IMG/VR virus record: IMGVR_UViG_2657245521_000006
DNA length: 18,167 nucleotides
Origin: a virus
Taxonomy: Duplodnaviria > Heunggongvirae > Uroviricota > Caudoviricetes
Direction: 5' to 3' (one strand)
The notes below the pieces were generated by a model that saw only the letters and a list, made by a program, of their open reading frames with translations, was not told where the DNA came from and made no database searches. This document shows, piece after piece, positions 1 to 18,167 of the stretch (position 1 is the stretch's first letter; each line of letters starts with the position of its first letter). The translations under genes were made by a program, and so were the position numbers.

Positions 1-105
1 AATGCGCTGGCGACGGTCGTGGCCGCACCGCTGGGAAGCTATCTGGGGGCTACGGTCGGATGGCGAGGCGCTTTCTTGTGCTTCTCTGAGTTTGTCAACG
101 TCTAG
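1..105 (+). CDS. 3' end of a + strand ORF entering from upstream of the window (stop TAG 103-105); GC-rich; peptide ...PLGSYLGATVGWRGAFL resembles the TM5/TM6 junction of MFS transporters, so possibly a truncated host gene fragment
   Basis: Frame-1 translation NALATVVAAPLGSYLGATVGWRGAFLCFSEFVNV*; 1-75 is clearly GC-rich versus AT-rich 80-420; the G-x-L-G...GWR-x-x-F pattern is recalled from MFS transporters (not searched). Confidence 0.3.
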   Translation, partial: NALATVVAAPLGSYLGATVGWRGAFLCFSEFVNV

Positions 106-354
106 AGAAACTTGTTTGTTGGCAATAATTAAATCTCCGCGGTTTAATGTATTCTTGTGTTGAAAAATCAGTAAAAGCCATTCTGTATTATTGTAAAGCT
201 TTTCAAGATTGGCATGTATATCAAGTCCGAGTTTTTCATATGCGGATAATTTGACCTCTTTTTCCTTTGCAGAAAGAGAAGATGAATAAGCCAGTAATCC
301 GCTTATTATGGCAACAATAAATGTTCCTATAATGGTTAAGGTATTCGAGTCCAT
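1..354 (-). CDS. Hypothetical protein with N-terminal transmembrane helix, partial (ATG at 354-352, no stop before window edge); may read through a composition junction near 75-105
   Basis: Hand translation of minus strand: MDSNTLTIIGTFIVAIISGLLAYSSSLSAKEKEVKLSAYEKLGLDIHANLEKLYNNTEWLLLIFQHKNTLNRGDLIIANKQVSLDVDKLREAQ... open to position 1; absent from ORF track, presumably because it has no in-window stop. Confidence 0.3.
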   Translation of the reverse strand, partial: MDSNTLTIIGTFIVAIISGLLAYSSSLSAKEKEVKLSAYEKLGLDIHANLEKLYNNTEWLLLIFQHKNTLNRGDLIIANKQVSLDVDKLREAQESASPSDRSPQIASQRCGHDRRQRI

Positions 355-461
355 TGTATTCTTCAAAAGTTGGTCAAAAATATATTGTAATATTTTAATG
401 TATAAAATCAATCATTTCCCCTCATTCTGAGAGGACTCACAGCAACAAAGAGGGGGGCTAA

Positions 462-848
462 ATGTCCGATCCGATTTCCGGTTCTGGGATGGCTGGTGGT
501 GTCCTGACGGGGGCCAGCGTCTATGGATTTCTATCCGGAACCGATTACGGCGTGGTGTTTGGCGCATTTGCCGGGGCTGTATTTTACATTGCAACCGCAG
601 CGGATCTAAGTGCAGCGCGCCGACTGGCATATTTTCTGGTGTCGTATATCGCGGGGATCCTTTGTTCCGGGCTGGTGGGTTCAAAGCTGGCTCAGGCTAC
701 CGGCTACAGTGATAAACCACTGGATGCCATTGGCGCCGTAATCGTTTCTGCTTTAGCCGTCAAAATCCTGACATTCCTGAATAATCAGGATGTCGGCTCG
801 CTGGTGGCGCTGATAACGCGCCGGGGAGGTTCAGGTGGTACAAAATGA
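462..848 (+). CDS. Phage holin (multi-TM small membrane protein heading the lysis cassette)
   Basis: 128 aa with several hydrophobic helices; strong SD AGAGGGGGG before ATG 462; sits immediately upstream of the endolysin. Confidence 0.7.
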   Translation: MSDPISGSGMAGGVLTGASVYGFLSGTDYGVVFGAFAGAVFYIATAADLSAARRLAYFLVSYIAGILCSGLVGSKLAQATGYSDKPLDAIGAVIVSALAVKILTFLNNQDVGSLVALITRRGGSGGTK

Positions 849-1116
849 CCCATCGGCAACTTTTAATGCATTGCTTTGTGCTGGGGTAGTGTTAACCCTG
901 ATGTTTTACCGTCGCGGCGACTCGCGACATCGACCGTGGATATCTCGCTTAGCGTGGCTGCTTACGGTCATCTACAGCGCCGTTCCGCTGGCGTATCTGT
1001 GCGGTATTTACCCGTACTCATCATGGGCCACTATCGGGGCCAACTTTATTTTCCTGTCCGTGCTGGTCGCCGTAAGAGGCAACGTGGCACGTCTGGTTGA
1101 TCATCTGAGGCACTAA
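835..1116 (+). CDS. Holin-associated small membrane protein (second holin component or antiholin candidate), GTG start
   Basis: 93 aa with about 3 predicted TM helices; GTG at 835 preceded by GGGAGG; overlaps the holin stop and ends in TAATG overlap with the endolysin start. Confidence 0.5.
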   Translation: MVQNDPSATFNALLCAGVVLTLMFYRRGDSRHRPWISRLAWLLTVIYSAVPLAYLCGIYPYSSWATIGANFIFLSVLVAVRGNVARLVDHLRH

Positions 1117-1730
1117 TGAACCAATCACAATTTCAGCAGGCGGCTGGTATCAGCGCCGGGCTTTCTGCGCGCTGGTTTCCGCACATTGACGCGGCAATGA
1201 AAGAGTTTGGCATTACAGCTACGAACGATCTGGCTATGTTCATCGCCCAGGTTGGGCATGAGTCTGCTGGCTTTACCTCGCTGGTGGAAAGCTTCAACTA
1301 CTCGGTAGAGGGGCTGAAGAAAACCTTTGGTAAACGGCTTACTCCTTATCAGTGTGAAATGCTGGGTCGTGTCGATGGTAAGCAGGTGGCCCACCAGCCG
1401 CAAATAGCCAATCTGGTTTATGGTGACCGCATGGGGAATAACAGCCAGGGTGACGGCTGGAAATATCGCGGTCGCGGCCTGCTGCAAATCACGGGTCGTG
1501 AGAACTACACCAAATGCGGCACGGCGCTGAAACTTGACCTTATCAGTACGCCAGAATTGCTAACGCAAGAGCGACATGCGGCTCGTTCGGCTGCGTGGTA
1601 CTTCACGTTACGCGGTTGCCTGATGTATTCGGGTGACGTGGCACGCGTTACGCAGATTATTAACGGCGGACAGAACGGCATTAAAGACCGCCGTGAACGT
1701 TACGCCAAAGCTAAAGCTGCACTGGTGTGA
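1116..1730 (+). CDS. Phage endolysin, glycoside hydrolase family 19 (chitinase-like lysozyme)
   Basis: 204 aa; motif FIAQVGHESAGF...LLQITGRENY typical of GH19 phage lysins (from memory); position inside lysis cassette. Confidence 0.88.
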   Translation: MNQSQFQQAAGISAGLSARWFPHIDAAMKEFGITATNDLAMFIAQVGHESAGFTSLVESFNYSVEGLKKTFGKRLTPYQCEMLGRVDGKQVAHQPQIANLVYGDRMGNNSQGDGWKYRGRGLLQITGRENYTKCGTALKLDLISTPELLTQERHAARSAAWYFTLRGCLMYSGDVARVTQIINGGQNGIKDRRERYAKAKAALV

Positions 1731-1737
1731 GGTCAGT

Positions 1738-2007
1738 ATGGGGCTTGAAATGATTATCGGCCTGGTTGTTGCTGTGCTGGCTGCAATTGCAGGTGCTTTT
1801 GGGCTGGGCAAATCACGCGGTACCAGTATCGCTGAAACAAAAGCGGACCAACAACGCACTGAAGAACGTGCAATAGCTATTGAAGCGGTTGCAGAACGCC
1901 GGGTAGAAACAACAAAAGGAGCCAGGGATGTACAACAGACTGTTAACCATATGCCTGATGACGCTGCTGATCGCGAGCTGCGCAAAAACTGGACACGTAA
2001 GGATTGA
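1738..2007 (+). CDS. i-spanin (Rz-like inner-membrane spanin)
   Basis: ATG 1738 preceded by GAGG; N-terminal TM helix MIIGLVVAVLAAIAGAFGL then charged helical periplasmic region; o-spanin gene embedded at its 3' end. Confidence 0.7.
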   Translation: MGLEMIIGLVVAVLAAIAGAFGLGKSRGTSIAETKADQQRTEERAIAIEAVAERRVETTKGARDVQQTVNHMPDDAADRELRKNWTRKD

Positions 2008-2149
2008 GGTTATTGACACCGGCTGCGATTGGGTAAAACCCATCTACGGCACTGCTCATGATTGGGAAGTGCTGGACAGGCAGACCAAGAAAGACATTCT
2101 TATGCATAACAAAGTGTGGATGTCAAACTGTGGCTCTATAACTTATTGA
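1928..2149 (+). CDS. o-spanin (Rz1-like outer-membrane lipoprotein), overlapped architecture
   Basis: Starts inside the i-spanin in another frame with perfect SD AAGGAG 8 nt upstream; lipobox L-I-A-S-C (Cys18); extends past the i-spanin stop. Confidence 0.65.
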   Translation: MYNRLLTICLMTLLIASCAKTGHVRIEVIDTGCDWVKPIYGTAHDWEVLDRQTKKDILMHNKVWMSNCGSITY

Positions 2150-2799
2150 TTTTGTTTTTTGTTGTCTACCATATCAGGCAATGTGAAGGCATATAGAAGA
2201 AATACTTCGGTGAAACCAATCATTTCTTGAGCATCTTCTTTTGAAAATTCTTCATCAGAATGAACTGCTCCATTGGAATCGATTCGAACTATATGTGCCC
2301 ATTCCCTCATTTGATCTGTAATCAGTCCCTTAGCATGCAACATAGAAATCCGTTTAACCAATTTTTCATCTTTTGAGTCATTTCCCAGTAACTCCCGTGT
2401 AGCAATGTCCAAGACTTTACGGCAAAGCATAACGGATGTGTCGAAACGACAGCGCCCTAAGTTGTCTTTTGCTTCTATGAAAGCCATAGCAGCACGTGGC
2501 GGAGTGTGTTCGGGGGCGTTAAGGAGGGTGGGTTTCGGGATGATATCAATCAACTGGTACTCAGTATTTCCAGGAATGATTACGTTTACATCATTATTTT
2601 GCCTAGATTTTGCACGAGGTAAATAACCACCGGGATTATTCATTTTTACAATAGCAATACCTGATTGAAAACAGCTTCGACAACAAAATGCAATATTAAC
2701 TAAAGGCCCGGCGTTGATACGCAGTTCTGCCCATCCTTCAAGGACAGCATTTTCCCTCAGACAATGTGGGCAAGTGATATCGAAAGTGAGAATTCCCAT
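2143..2799 (-). CDS. Zinc-ribbon plus DUF4145-like helical domain protein (about 218 aa); candidate defence/abortive-infection-type cargo
   Basis: Minus ORF; start taken at ATG 2799-2797 with GGAG 7 nt upstream (MGILTFDITCPHC...); N-terminal CxxC...CCxxC; C-terminal ...HIVRIDSNGAVHSDEEFSKEDAQEMIGFTEVFLLYAF matches my memory of the DUF4145 signature; AT-rich codon usage unlike phage core genes. Confidence 0.7.
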   Translation of the reverse strand: MGILTFDITCPHCLRENAVLEGWAELRINAGPLVNIAFCCRSCFQSGIAIVKMNNPGGYLPRAKSRQNNDVNVIIPGNTEYQLIDIIPKPTLLNAPEHTPPRAAMAFIEAKDNLGRCRFDTSVMLCRKVLDIATRELLGNDSKDEKLVKRISMLHAKGLITDQMREWAHIVRIDSNGAVHSDEEFSKEDAQEMIGFTEVFLLYAFTLPDMVDNKKQNQ

Positions 2800-3479
2800 G
2801 ACTCTACTCCATACATTAAAAGAAATTGAAAATGAATTACACAATGCACAACGACCTGAGTCTACACTCCTTCAACGATATGAAGTATCGAATGAGATTA
2901 AAAAAAAGGAGTTTGTAGTCGCTTTGATCGGTAAACTGATAGAATTGGACCGCCGTCTCTATGTCACATCATTGAAGCCTTAGTTTCAATTTTACCGATT
3001 TATCGCTTAAGGGGTAGGACTTCAACACTACTAAGTGAGCATTGCAGCAGGCATTCAGGGGAATGCTGTGACAGTAGTTAGCTAGGGTAAACCGTTTGCG
3101 CCTGGGGATTTTACTTTGCGACGGAAAATTAAAAAACTATATGATTTCTTATCCCACTAGGATGTCTGCGGACTACTACTGACTGTTTAGGCTATTACGA
3201 GGGGCTCAAACTCAACGTCTGGCATCAACGCAGAACTGAAAAAGTCGCCATGAATGTGGTTACGGTATTTGGTGGGATATAAACGTACCTTCATTTCTAA
3301 GCTTGATAATCACCTTTGTCCGAATTGCCTACGCGATAGTCATGTAGTTTTAGTCATAACCGTTTACCCTATTGATGTCAAGATAAATTGGATAACACTG
3401 ATGAATCGAACCTCTAAATCCTTTGATGGGCCACTCATAGCTGACTGGTTCAAAAAAGTGTTATCAATGGTATGATAAG

Positions 3480-3509
3480 TTGAGATGAAAGGTGTAAATG
3501 AACTATAAT
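3480..3509 (+). promoter_or_regulatory. Candidate sigma70 promoter for the two-gene cargo operon (-35 TTGAGA, 18-nt spacer, -10 TATAAT)
   Basis: TTGAGA at 3480-3485 and TATAAT at 3504-3509, about 35 nt upstream of ATG 3545. Confidence 0.4.
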
Positions 3510-3544
3510 AATTCAACAGTTAATCTGAGAAAAATGGATTATGT

Positions 3545-3814
3545 ATGTCGAATGTAAAAAAAATAGATGCTATAGTTCAAAATTTATTTGAATTCAGAGA
3601 TGCTACAGGTGAACTTACGGATAAAAATATTGTTTTAATACAAAAAATCATAACGAACTTACCTGACTATGCTGGTAAGGATCCATATGAATTTTATTCA
3701 TCATTTTCTGAAGATATTAATGAGTCGCTCAAAGCAATTGCCAATTATCATAAGGCACATGCTAAATACATTAATGCCCTCGATAAATTAGCAGAGCTTA
3801 GGTCGGAGGGGTAA
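3545..3814 (+). CDS. Hypothetical small acidic helical protein (89 aa), first gene of the cargo operon
   Basis: ORF in very AT-rich DNA; followed 2 nt later by the coupled second gene; no family recognised. Confidence 0.6.
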   Translation: MSNVKKIDAIVQNLFEFRDATGELTDKNIVLIQKIITNLPDYAGKDPYEFYSSFSEDINESLKAIANYHKAHAKYINALDKLAELRSEG

Positions 3815-3816
3815 TA

Positions 3817-4194
3817 ATGGCTACGGAAGATATTCAGGCTTTGTTATCTAAAGTTAATGCGTTAAGATTTGAAGATAAAAGAATAGAGAAGGAAACAGGA
3901 GAGATTGAAAATGAAATTCAGGCTCAATTTCTTCGTGATGGTAAAACAAGGAGTACATTAACCATAACATTTATGAGAGGCTTTTTTGGTCTTATCGTTT
4001 TTTCTTTTATATTTGTGATAGTTTATAACTATTGCGCAGTGCAATGGGTACTTCAATTACAAAGCAAAGGGCTCATGGAGGCTTCTAAAAGTATCGCACT
4101 ACTTGAGTTAGATAAGGTGTTATCTATTATGGTTAGTGCGTTAGGAACATCTCTTGGGTTTATAATTGGCTATTATTTTAAAGACAAAAAATAA
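3817..4194 (+). CDS. Hypothetical membrane protein (125 aa; cytoplasmic coiled N-terminus plus two predicted TM helices), second gene of the cargo operon
   Basis: Strong SD GGAGGGG before ATG 3817; hydrophobic segments LTITFMRGFFGLIVFSFIFVIVY and VLSIMVSALGTSLGFIIGYYF; terminator downstream. Confidence 0.65.
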   Translation: MATEDIQALLSKVNALRFEDKRIEKETGEIENEIQAQFLRDGKTRSTLTITFMRGFFGLIVFSFIFVIVYNYCAVQWVLQLQSKGLMEASKSIALLELDKVLSIMVSALGTSLGFIIGYYFKDKK

Positions 4195-4269
4195 ATAATT
4201 TAATTTTACATTGCTATTTATGTTTTGCTTTTAAGATTTTTAACTTTCTAGATGTAGAGTTATTGTTAA

Positions 4270-4297
4270 AGCACTGGTATTTGCCAGTGCTTTTTTA
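4270..4297 (+). terminator. Rho-independent terminator closing the cargo operon
   Basis: Stem AGCACTGG / CCAGTGCT with loop TATTTG, followed by TTTTTT. Confidence 0.55.
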
Positions 4298-4695
4298 TTA
4301 AAATCCGCGGATTAATGACGGCAATCATGAATACTCCTCCAAAGACTGATCCAACGATACGGGTGTATAAGTCACACTTGTTTAATCTGTGATTGATGGC
4401 ACTATAATTTATGTTGCACAACATAAACTGCCGATGGAGGGAATTGAGTGCTGAGCATGTCAGACATAAGTGTGTTGTCGAAGGTCTCCTCAGGCATGGT
4501 TTCTGCATAACGTCGACACTTGAAAGCCTCCATAATGACAATAAAGTATAAGTATTATCATTATTAATTGTCACTTGCCGTTGCGACATGCTTGGGCGGC
4601 GACCGCCTAAGTTCTCTTTATAAATGAGAAGTTCCCGCTAGCGACCGTTTCTGATTCCTTTTTTTCTACTAAGTTTGTATCAAATAAACAGGATA

Positions 4696-5064
4696 ATGCC
4701 GATGCCAGCACGAGCAAAGCGTCCATGCCGGCACAAGGGCTGTGCGGCAGTTACCAACGATGCCAGTGGCTATTGTGATCAACACCGACAGCGGCATGCT
4801 GGTGATGGCTGGCGTAACTACCAGGCAGGAAAGAGCAGGCAGGAACGTGGATATGGGCGGACCTGGGAAATTAAACGGGTGCGTATCCTTCAGCGTGATA
4901 AGTACCTGTGTCAGAACCATCGCCGGCAGAAGATTGCAAAAAAGGCGACCAGCGTTGACCACATCATTCCAAAAGCTCATGGCGGTACTGATGACGATTT
5001 CAATCTTGAGTCGTTGTGCTGGGACTGCCACAGAGCGAAGACGGCAAGAGAGCGTATCCGATGA
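4696..5064 (+). CDS. HNH endonuclease, phage packaging-associated (HK97 gp74-like position)
   Basis: C-terminal HNH motif ...DHIIPKAHGGTDDDFNLESLCWDCHRAK; Cys/His-rich N-terminus; just upstream of terminase genes; start ambiguous between ATG 4696 and 4702 (SD AGGA at 4689-4692 favours 4702). Confidence 0.85.
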   Translation: MPMPARAKRPCRHKGCAAVTNDASGYCDQHRQRHAGDGWRNYQAGKSRQERGYGRTWEIKRVRILQRDKYLCQNHRRQKIAKKATSVDHIIPKAHGGTDDDFNLESLCWDCHRAKTARERIR

Positions 5065-5398
5065 GTTAGACCCATTGCACATATTTTGGTTCACGGCTCT
5101 ATACAATAGCTAACTGCCCAAAATAATGGGGTGGTTCATCGCGCCGCGCCAACCTGCACTGCAGCTATTGTGGGCAGTCAGGGCATAACTCTAGTGCCTG
5201 TCCACATAATGAGAGCTGCGGTCGTCGGCGCAGCCTGAATGATGACTTCCATCTTGATTGATGCCCACACAGGCCAGGGGAAGGGGGGATCAAATCCCTG
5301 ACCCCTTTCGCCTTCCAGGACTGCCGCCTGAAGGACATTTTTGCACGTCATAAATAAGGATCTTTTTTCCGGTAGGTTTCACCTATTAAAGAGGAGTT

Positions 5399-5833
5399 AT
5401 GGCTGGTGGAATTCGATCGTCTGGAGGGGGGAGAAAACCCATCTTACCCGCCGGACAAAAAAGTAAATTAACCCGAATTGCACCTCCTGCAGAGTTAATG
5501 GGGGAGGCTGCAATAAGACTGTGGAAAACCCAAAGTAAAATTCTGATCGAAAGAGGCGTGTTTGAACTGGAGGATGCGCCCCTGCTTGTGGCTTACTGCA
5601 ATGCCTTCCATTTAATGCTTGAAGCTGAAAAATTGCTCTCGTCAAGCCTGACGACCGAAAGTGAAATGGGGGGATTAAAGAAACATCCCGCCGTTAACAT
5701 CAGAAATGATTCAGTTTCCCAGATAGCCCGTCTTGGTTCGCTTCTGGGGTTGGATCCGCTCAGCCGAATTCGGATGCGTGGCGGTGGAAATGATCCTGAC
5801 GACGACGGGAATGAATTTGATGAGTTTGACTGA
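5399..5833 (+). CDS. Terminase small subunit (P27-family-like)
   Basis: 144 aa; SD AGAGGAG before ATG; 1-nt TGATG overlap with the large terminase; acidic C-terminal tail. Confidence 0.8.
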   Translation: MAGGIRSSGGGRKPILPAGQKSKLTRIAPPAELMGEAAIRLWKTQSKILIERGVFELEDAPLLVAYCNAFHLMLEAEKLLSSSLTTESEMGGLKKHPAVNIRNDSVSQIARLGSLLGLDPLSRIRMRGGGNDPDDDGNEFDEFD

Positions 5834-7554
5834 TGGCTACATATCCGAACGTCAATGCAGCGAACCAGTATGCAAGAGATGTTGTTGGCGGGAAGATCCT
5901 TGCTTGTCAGTTAACTGTGCTTGCCTGTCAAAGACACCTTGATGATTTGGAACGTGCGAAGGATCCTGCCTGGCCTTACCGGTTTGATAAAAACAAGGCC
6001 GAGCGATTTTTGCGCTTTGCTCAGAAGATGCCTCATACGGCCGGTGAATGGGCCAGGAAGAAACTACGAATAGAATTTGAGCCCTGGCAAAAGTTTGCCC
6101 TTGGTGTGCCATTTGGATGGGTTAATAAGAAGTCCGGATTCCGGCGTTTTTCTGAAATATATATTGAGGTGCCCAGGAAAAATGGGAAATCCGCAATTGC
6201 AGCTGCCGTTGGTAATTATATGTTTTGCGCCGATGGTGAACATGGTGCAGAAGTGTACTGTGGCGCCACTACTGAAAAACAAGCCTGGAAAGTCTTCTCT
6301 CCCGCTCTACAAATGGTAAAAAAACTCCCGGCATTGCGACAAAAATACTCAGTCAAACCCTGGGCGAAGAAAATGACCCGTCCGGATGGCTCTGTTTTTG
6401 CGCCAGTCATCGGCGATCCTGGTGACGGCGATTCCCCTTCATGTGCAATTATTGATGAATATCACGAGCATCAGACTGATGCACTTTATACAACGATGAC
6501 TACCGGGATGGGGGCAAGGGAGCAGCCTGTTACTCTGATTATTACTACAGCGGGTTATGACATTACTTCGCCCTGTTACGAGAAGCGTGTGCAGATAGTG
6601 GAAATTCTCCGCCGTAACCGGACAGGAGAAGAAAACGAGACAATATTTGGCATTATATACGGTCTGGATGACGATGATGACTGGACCAGGCCCGAAGCGC
6701 TGATTAAAGCAAATCCCAACTTTGGTGTTTCTGTTAAAGAGCATTTTCTTCGGGCGAAGCAGTTACTGGGAATATCCAATCCCAGCCAGACTAACAAAAT
6801 TCTGACCAAGCACTTTAACCGGTGGGTAAGTGCAAAAACGGTTTTTTATGACCTGCAAAGATGGATGGCTGCTGCGGATAAAAACCTTAAATTATCTGAT
6901 TTTGTTGATGAGGATTGCTGGCTGGGTATTGATCTGGCCTCGAAAGTAGACCTGAATGCCGTAGTGCCAGTGTTCAGGAGAGAGGTTGCTGGTATAACCC
7001 ATTTTTACTGTGTGGGGCCGCTGTTCTGGGCGCCTGAAGATACAATTTATTCACCAGATCCCACGCTGAAAACCATTTCTGAACGTTACCAGTCATTTGT
7101 GAAACAGGGGGTATTGATACCTACTGAAGGGGCTGAGGTGGATTATCGGTTAATTTTTGAGTCAATTCTTCAGTTACGCCAGCAGGTTAAAATTGTCCAG
7201 TGCCCGATAGATCCTTACGGGGCAACATCATTGCGCCATCTGCTTGAAGAGGAGGGGCTGGAATCCGTTGAGATCAGGCAAAATTTTACACATATGAGTG
7301 ATCCAATGCGTGAAATTGAGGCGGCGCTGGCATCAGGACGCTTTCATCATGACGGTAACCCTATCATGAACTGGTGCATCCAGAATGTTATAGGGCGTTA
7401 CTTACCAGGAAGCGATGACATTGTTCGCCCAGGGAAGGAGAGAAAGCAAAACAAAATAGATGGCGCGGTAGGACTAATGATGGGAGTCGGGCGAGCCATG
7501 CTGAACGGAACTGTCAGTAAATCGGCTTATGATGAGGAAGATATTACATGTTGA
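5833..7554 (+). CDS. Terminase large subunit (ATPase/nuclease)
   Basis: 573 aa; P-loop-like VPRKNGKSAIAAAVGNYMF then acidic segment CAIIDEYHEH; typical length and position. Confidence 0.93.
   Translation: MATYPNVNAANQYARDVVGGKILACQLTVLACQRHLDDLERAKDPAWPYRFDKNKAERFLRFAQKMPHTAGEWARKKLRIEFEPWQKFALGVPFGWVNKKSGFRRFSEIYIEVPRKNGKSAIAAAVGNYMFCADGEHGAEVYCGATTEKQAWKVFSPALQMVKKLPALRQKYSVKPWAKKMTRPDGSVFAPVIGDPGDGDSPSCAIIDEYHEHQTDALYTTMTTGMGAREQPVTLIITTAGYDITSPCYEKRVQIVEILRRNRTGEENETIFGIIYGLDDDDDWTRPEALIKANPNFGVSVKEHFLRAKQLLGISNPSQTNKILTKHFNRWVSAKTVFYDLQRWMAAADKNLKLSDFVDEDCWLGIDLASKVDLNAVVPVFRREVAGITHFYCVGPLFWAPEDTIYSPDPTLKTISERYQSFVKQGVLIPTEGAEVDYRLIFESILQLRQQVKIVQCPIDPYGATSLRHLLEEEGLESVEIRQNFTHMSDPMREIEAALASGRFHHDGNPIMNWCIQNVIGRYLPGSDDIVRPGKERKQNKIDGAVGLMMGVGRAMLNGTVSKSAYDEEDITC

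Positions 7555-17785: not shown

Positions 17786-18167
<382 letters not shown>

Follow-up and report, generated by a model that had tools for sequence, protein, structure and literature searches.

A short transporter fragment at the end of an Escherichia coli lambdoid prophage contig is probably a chimeric assembly tail joined inside an AT-rich accessory gene

The interval between Q and the lysis genes of lambdoid phages is the classic position for moron genes, of which stx in the Stx phages is an example, and the lambdoid prophages of E. coli that integrate at icd form the e14 / phage 21 type. Here we analysed a window of 18,167 bp, meaning the whole stretch of DNA presented, that compares with both of these and, at its left edge, with two further described classes: the NepI-like MFS efflux transporters of the DHA type and the chimeric or dead-end termini of short-read contigs. 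In the relatives of this phage (L004 and L007) the integrase/excisionase pair directly adjoins icd, as in the e14 / phage 21 type; the difference is that the window covers only the lysis-to-tail part, without the integration site. We propose that the transporter sequence that opens the window is probably an assembly artefact, attached within a phage gene that lies at the moron position.

The initial annotation had drawn attention to a GC-rich left edge that gives way to an AT-rich block, to an MFS-like plus-strand frame that stops at 103-105 in what would be the middle of a transporter, and to a minus-strand ORF that starts at 354 and reads into the GC-rich part without a stop. All of these observations hold. 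The GC content is 66.7% at 1-81, against 31.1% at 82-415 and 53.6% at 416-2000, and only 1.8% of the 334-nt stretches of the contig are as AT-rich as 82-415. The composition switch can be located to the base, with identity to an MFS gene up to 81 and, from 82 on, 99-100% identity to a lambdoid prophage of many E. coli draft and metagenome contigs. The left edge and the lysis genes comprise the following features.

1-81, plus strand: terminal tail, codons 129-155 of a 375-aa MFS gene, 100% identical to L001 6001-6081.
81-82, no strand: blunt join of MFS and phage sequence with 0-2 nt shared, depending on the MFS allele (three-way alignment of window, MFS locus and intact phage).
82-105, plus strand: out-of-frame phage sequence that gives the transporter frame its apparent C-terminus, FSEFVNV and a stop (translation).
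82-354, minus strand: codons 1-91 of the gene for an orphan phage protein of 220 aa, with the other 129 codons missing; 100% identical to L013 4684-4956 and to L015, L016, L028 and L030.
355-461, no strand: AT-rich spacer between the divergently oriented 220-aa and holin genes, in which the minus strand (411-379) has two sigma-70-like hexamer pairs that overlap.
462-848, plus strand: holin (Phage_holin_8, Pfam scan).
835-1116, plus strand: second holin (Phage_holin_3_7, Pfam scan).
1116-1730, plus strand: GH19 endolysin (Pfam scan).
1738-2007, plus strand: 89-aa ORF that ends the lysis cassette block (462-2007).

The MFS segment is foreign to the remainder of the contig. Its 81 nt are 100% identical to an accessory E. 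coli MFS gene, and in another allele the match extends over 1-83 at 98.8%. The matching stretch of L001 lies inside a CDS at 5617-6744, and this comparison with E. coli MFS genes bears out the mid-protein truncation of the transporter. Frame +1 of 1-105 translates as NALATVVAAPLGSYLGATVGWRGAFLCFSEFVNV and then a stop; the native protein reads ...FLCLVPIAVV... at the point where the window frame turns to seven phage codons. The gene is present in 918 of 5,426 complete E. coli genomes, once per genome (median 1, maximum 2 places), in a locus with the order ykgR remnant, LysR regulator, alpha/beta hydrolase, MFS, paoD. The best NCBIfam match of the protein is NepI, a purine ribonucleoside efflux pump, at 277 bits against a cutoff of 584, a score far under the equivalog cutoff that suggests a NepI paralogue rather than NepI. 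The piece therefore resembles the NepI-like DHA-type transporters in its complete identity to an E. coli MFS_1 protein whose best family is NepI, and differs from them in the sub-cutoff score and in that just 27 of the 375 codons are in the window. As the window is the whole of draft contig CCBR01000281.1 (assembly GCA_000940555.1), with base 1 being the contig end, the MFS piece forms its extreme tip, a tail of less than read length.

On the phage side of the join, the minus-strand ORF runs from the ATG at 354 off the left edge and has an in-frame TTG at 411, from which the 220-aa gene is sometimes called as a gene of 239 aa. The full-length protein has a hydrophobic helix at each end, with hydropathy peaks at residues 3-27 and 179-207, and matched no family in Pfam, NCBIfam, PHROG or PADLOC. 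Its homologues, of 220-242 aa, form a small set in E. coli, Enterobacter, Lelliottia, Citrobacter and other Enterobacteriaceae, and when the 129 C-terminal residues absent from the window were used as a query, the sole match was an unrelated Logan fragment with a frameshift. The promoter-like hexamers upstream of the gene are consensus matches only, three being found where 1.4 are expected. The segment 84-415 has no match in 5,426 complete RefSeq E. coli genomes, and the 220-aa gene segment does occur in one GenBank genome that is complete (CP057166.1, L007) as well as in several E. coli assemblies, draft or third-party, a distribution that suggests that the phage module with the 220-aa gene is rare in E. 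coli.

We found the same gene order in every intact copy of this region: the Q antiterminator (229 aa), a 283-aa gene, the 220-aa gene on the opposite strand, the holin, the second holin and the GH19 endolysin. In more than 20 related loci the ORF that is cut at 82 goes on for 129 codons more and is preceded by the 283-aa gene and Q; all of them also repeat the order of the window's lysis cassette (462-2007). Several assemblies with contigs of the same phage show how it continues to the left of base 82.

L013 and L030, Logan ERR738829: no break at base 82; the complete 220-aa gene is followed upstream by the 283-aa gene and Q.
L028, CDRL01000259.1: likewise unbroken at base 82 and complete from the 220-aa gene to Q, the 283-aa gene included.
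L015, CDRS01000274.1: normal phage sequence for 144 nt to the left of base 82, then the contig end.
L016, CCBS01000222.1: normal phage sequence for 144 nt to the left of base 82, then the contig end.
L032 and four similar contigs, Logan ERR738828: left-hand phage contig that ends in the 220-aa gene at L030 9136.

The first five of these contigs (L013, L015, L016, L028 and L030) are 100% identical to the window from base 82 and continue leftward as phage. Q is indeed absent from the window, as had been pointed out, the first phage genes there being the two holins and the GH19 endolysin. The normal phage late-regulatory genes that had been named as what would speak against a prophage junction or an insertion at this edge are present upstream in the identical copies L013, L028 and L030, Q included. 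The underlying biology is thus that of an ordinary lambdoid prophage, with Q, the 283-aa gene, the opposite-strand 220-aa gene and the holin. With the contig broken within the 220-aa gene, Q is probably missing from the window because it lies beyond the contig end.

The contigs also delimit where coverage fails. The right-hand contigs L015 and L016 begin at L030 9188, and the left-hand contig L032 stops 51 nt short of that point. These 51 nt (L030 9137-9187) lie inside the 220-aa gene, about 145-195 nt to the left of window base 82, and have a GC content of about 20%. Since the assemblies repeatedly break in this AT-rich gene and no repeat is found there, the breaks are the signature of coverage drop-out.

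Furthermore, we found other short tails in the same family of assemblies. The contig L017 ends at window position 7017, in terL, with 45 nt (L017 7018-7062) that are 100% identical to yfbS, and L016 ends at window position 6898, also in terL, with 115 nt (L016 6962-7076) of the fsr-ushA intergenic region; both are single-copy core loci. The window and L013 run continuously through 7017 and 6898, so that neither the yfbS nor the fsr-ushA tail is a true adjacency. The assembly family that shares the MFS tail thus demonstrably yields short false tails from unrelated chromosomal loci. At each of the three joins the sequences meet bluntly, with microhomology of 0-2 nt, and neither an IS end nor an att core nor a repeat was found there. 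The L017 and L016 tails point to a systematic chimeric-end problem in this assembly batch (accession series CCBx and CDRx).

Two further origins of the join were considered and rejected. A recombination seed in the similar 9-mers TTCTTATGC (phage) and TTCTTGTGC (MFS) is 4 nt out of register with the join, and for an IS-mediated event the left join lacks an IS end, the sole IS being at the right end of the contig.

Accordingly, we hypothesize that bases 1-81 are an artefactual tail, the chimeric end of a short-read draft contig at a coverage gap, and we put the probability of this reading at about 0.8. The contig would have broken inside the very AT-rich 220-aa gene, where coverage was lost, and the assembler would have extended the dead end with what was left of a chimeric read or fragment, no genuine reads competing. 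The chimeric fragment itself may have been a blunt library-preparation fusion between phage DNA and the isolate's own MFS gene, and a tip of this kind, at a dead end without a competing genuine path, would escape clipping. The join cuts both genes, so that the transporter frame gains phage codons and a stop while the phage ORF runs into antisense MFS; with a chimeric tip, the cut transporter, the stop at 103-105 and the minus-strand ORF that enters GC-rich DNA are all by-products of the join. The locus shares with known chimeric or dead-end contig termini a foreign tip shorter than a read, a blunt join, partners that are both intact elsewhere and a break at a very AT-rich site, and its sibling assemblies hold several such tails from unrelated single-copy loci. 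It differs in that two deposited assemblies have the MFS tail, an unusual recurrence if they do not go back to the same library or reads. The GC-rich to AT-rich switch is then most likely not a real genomic feature.

This recurrence is the principal evidence against an artefact. An identical 81-nt tail with the same first base is found in L017 (CDRV01000299.1, 7,062 bp; GCA_000937355.1), and random chimeras are not expected to recur in independent libraries. The independence of this assembly from GCA_000940555.1 is doubtful. L015 and L016, whose two accession series are also those of the window and L017, have an identical contig start at the end of the coverage gap, and L015 and L017 are each listed in two samples; we therefore suspect that the assemblies of the window and of L017 are not independent. 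Were they independent, the shared junction and contig start would speak for a real rearrangement, in which illegitimate recombination (a deletion, an inversion or a transposed fragment) joined MFS codon 155 to a point midway in the 220-aa gene, with loss or displacement of the left half of the prophage, from int to Q. Microhomology of 0-2 nt fits such an event, and the prophage is already damaged on its right side by an IS insertion. We nonetheless regard it as unlikely. A real scar would have long flanks, and both junction-bearing contigs end 81 nt past the join, within a single-copy gene of normal GC content through which a true junction should let the contig continue, which favours an artefact. 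L017 itself bears the demonstrably false yfbS tail, the clone-mates with 100% identical phage DNA are intact over base 82, and five left-part phage contigs that end in the 220-aa gene (L032 and the four similar ones) exist in what is a small clone. Moreover, the relatives are located at icd, which we take to lie far from the pao/yag locus on the K-12 map, and a simple deletion between the two would remove hundreds of kilobases including essential genes. Searches for the fusion gave results that agree with this and carry little weight. In the collections searched, no contig was found that crosses the junction and extends over more than 81 nt of the MFS gene. In GTDB representative genomes, JGI metagenomes and IMG/VR the junction 32-mer had no match, a result that means little because a control 32-mer of natural phage sequence is itself rare there (0, 2 and 1 matches). 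A protein-database search with the modelled 141-aa chimeric ORF and the 162-aa cut MFS protein gave no match over the fused ends, and in an exact look-up five modelled chimeric products were all absent from the protein collection, edge-truncated products appearing to be scarce in that collection. When phage and plasmid records were searched by tblastn with the minus-strand ORF, the matches were confined to its antisense-MFS part.

The identical start base in the two assemblies and the stop soon after the junction would also be explained if the 5′ part of the MFS gene were duplicated, with one copy fused to the phage, and the contig had ended after the k-1 bases shared by the two copies in the assembly graph. 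We consider this very unlikely: the MFS gene occurs once per genome wherever it is present, as given above, the two tails of L017 are unequal (81 nt on the left against 45 nt on the right) and so do not fit a fixed k-1, and a match of 81 or 83 nt would imply an even k, which Velvet-type assemblers should not allow. The reading put forward in the initial annotation, an insertion or deletion boundary and possibly the left junction (attL) of the prophage inside a disrupted transporter gene, stands as far as the sharpness of the boundary is concerned, at 81|82, and fails as to its nature, the join lying in a phage ORF and the transporter piece at a contig tip. Phage DNA does abut a disrupted host gene, as attL would require, and even so we give this origin almost no chance. 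An att junction would place the phage end next to int and xis, and 81|82 falls between codons 91 and 92 of a late-region ORF; the integrase, beside icd with xis, is about 5 kb away in L004, a rearranged relative, and 8-9 kb away in L007. That ORF is continuous in the more than 20 related loci, whose gene order contradicts a phage end at this place, and every relative has its lysis cassette in the middle of the genome. No integrase, att-like repeat or tRNA gene was found in the window, and the attachment site that had been envisaged at the join is not borne out, the MFS gene and the phage having too little in common there (0-2 nt) for a shared att core.

The preferred reading, a chimeric tail, carries a caution, in that a composition step, a cut host gene and a seemingly missing Q can together pass for the edge of a prophage or for inserted cargo; when draft assemblies are scanned, whatever lies within roughly one read length of a contig terminus should be discounted. 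Were the junction real instead, the window would hold a prophage fragment, from lysis through tail, cut off from Q, repressor and integrase and therefore defective, with lysis and structural genes deprived of Q-dependent late transcription. It would also encode a truncated NepI-like transporter of 162 aa and a chimeric, membrane-anchored ORF of about 141 aa, and would represent a domesticated, Q-less late-gene block in one E. coli clone.

With the tail removed, the remainder is an ordinary lambdoid late region with an AT-rich accessory pair. The alternative of further cargo, also raised in the initial annotation, fits the AT-rich block, which is a phage accessory cargo gene. The 220-aa gene has 32% GC against about 53% in its neighbours, lies on the opposite strand between Q with the 283-aa gene and the holin, and has the promoter-like hexamers upstream. 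As in lambdoid moron loci, a low-GC pair (32-36%), the 283-aa and 220-aa genes, occupies exactly the interval between Q and the lysis cassette, with the 220-aa gene directed against the late operon; the locus differs from these in that neither protein matches a characterised family and that the window has just 91 codons of one of them. The pair is located at L013 3223-4956, just to the left of window base 82, and was present in every intact relative seen. The 283-aa protein has a weak, sub-threshold match to DUF5677, and close homologues of it are also found in Klebsiella, Raoultella and Citrobacter. Neither member matched a defence or toxin family or a PHROG. The DUF5677-like 283-aa protein and the 220-aa protein with its two predicted transmembrane segments could be a candidate phage-borne exclusion or defence module, and the pair is the only element here that might deserve separate study.

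A second, larger AT-rich island follows 3′ of the lysis genes, at 2000-4700, with GC down to 28%. It looks like another accessory-gene slot and precedes the packaging genes.

2143-2799, minus strand: gene for a DUF4145 protein of 218 aa (PHROG 1305 'DNA binding protein', E = 3e-42; weak PADLOC match to PD-T7-4, E = 0.002).
3545-4194: small ORFs in the second AT-rich island.
4702-5064: HNH endonuclease gene, just upstream of the terminases.
5399-5833: small terminase gene.
5833-7554: large terminase gene.

The stretch from 4702 to 7554 is what we take to be an HK97-like, HNH-assisted packaging module, and after the large terminase gene, which ends at 7554, come the genes for a portal protein, an S49 protease and the major capsid protein. 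The right end of the contig (17668-18167) is an IS insertion and not a phage end. The relatives match up to 17857, and the gene for an Ail/Lom-family outer-membrane protein starts at the ATG at 17787, inside the matched stretch. From about 17850-17858 the sequence is that of ISEc31, of the IS3 family, with 99% identity to the element in many E. coli copies, and about 310 nt of it are present before the contig ends. The relatives go on with lom, the gene sodC for a Cu/Zn superoxide dismutase and the other tail genes.
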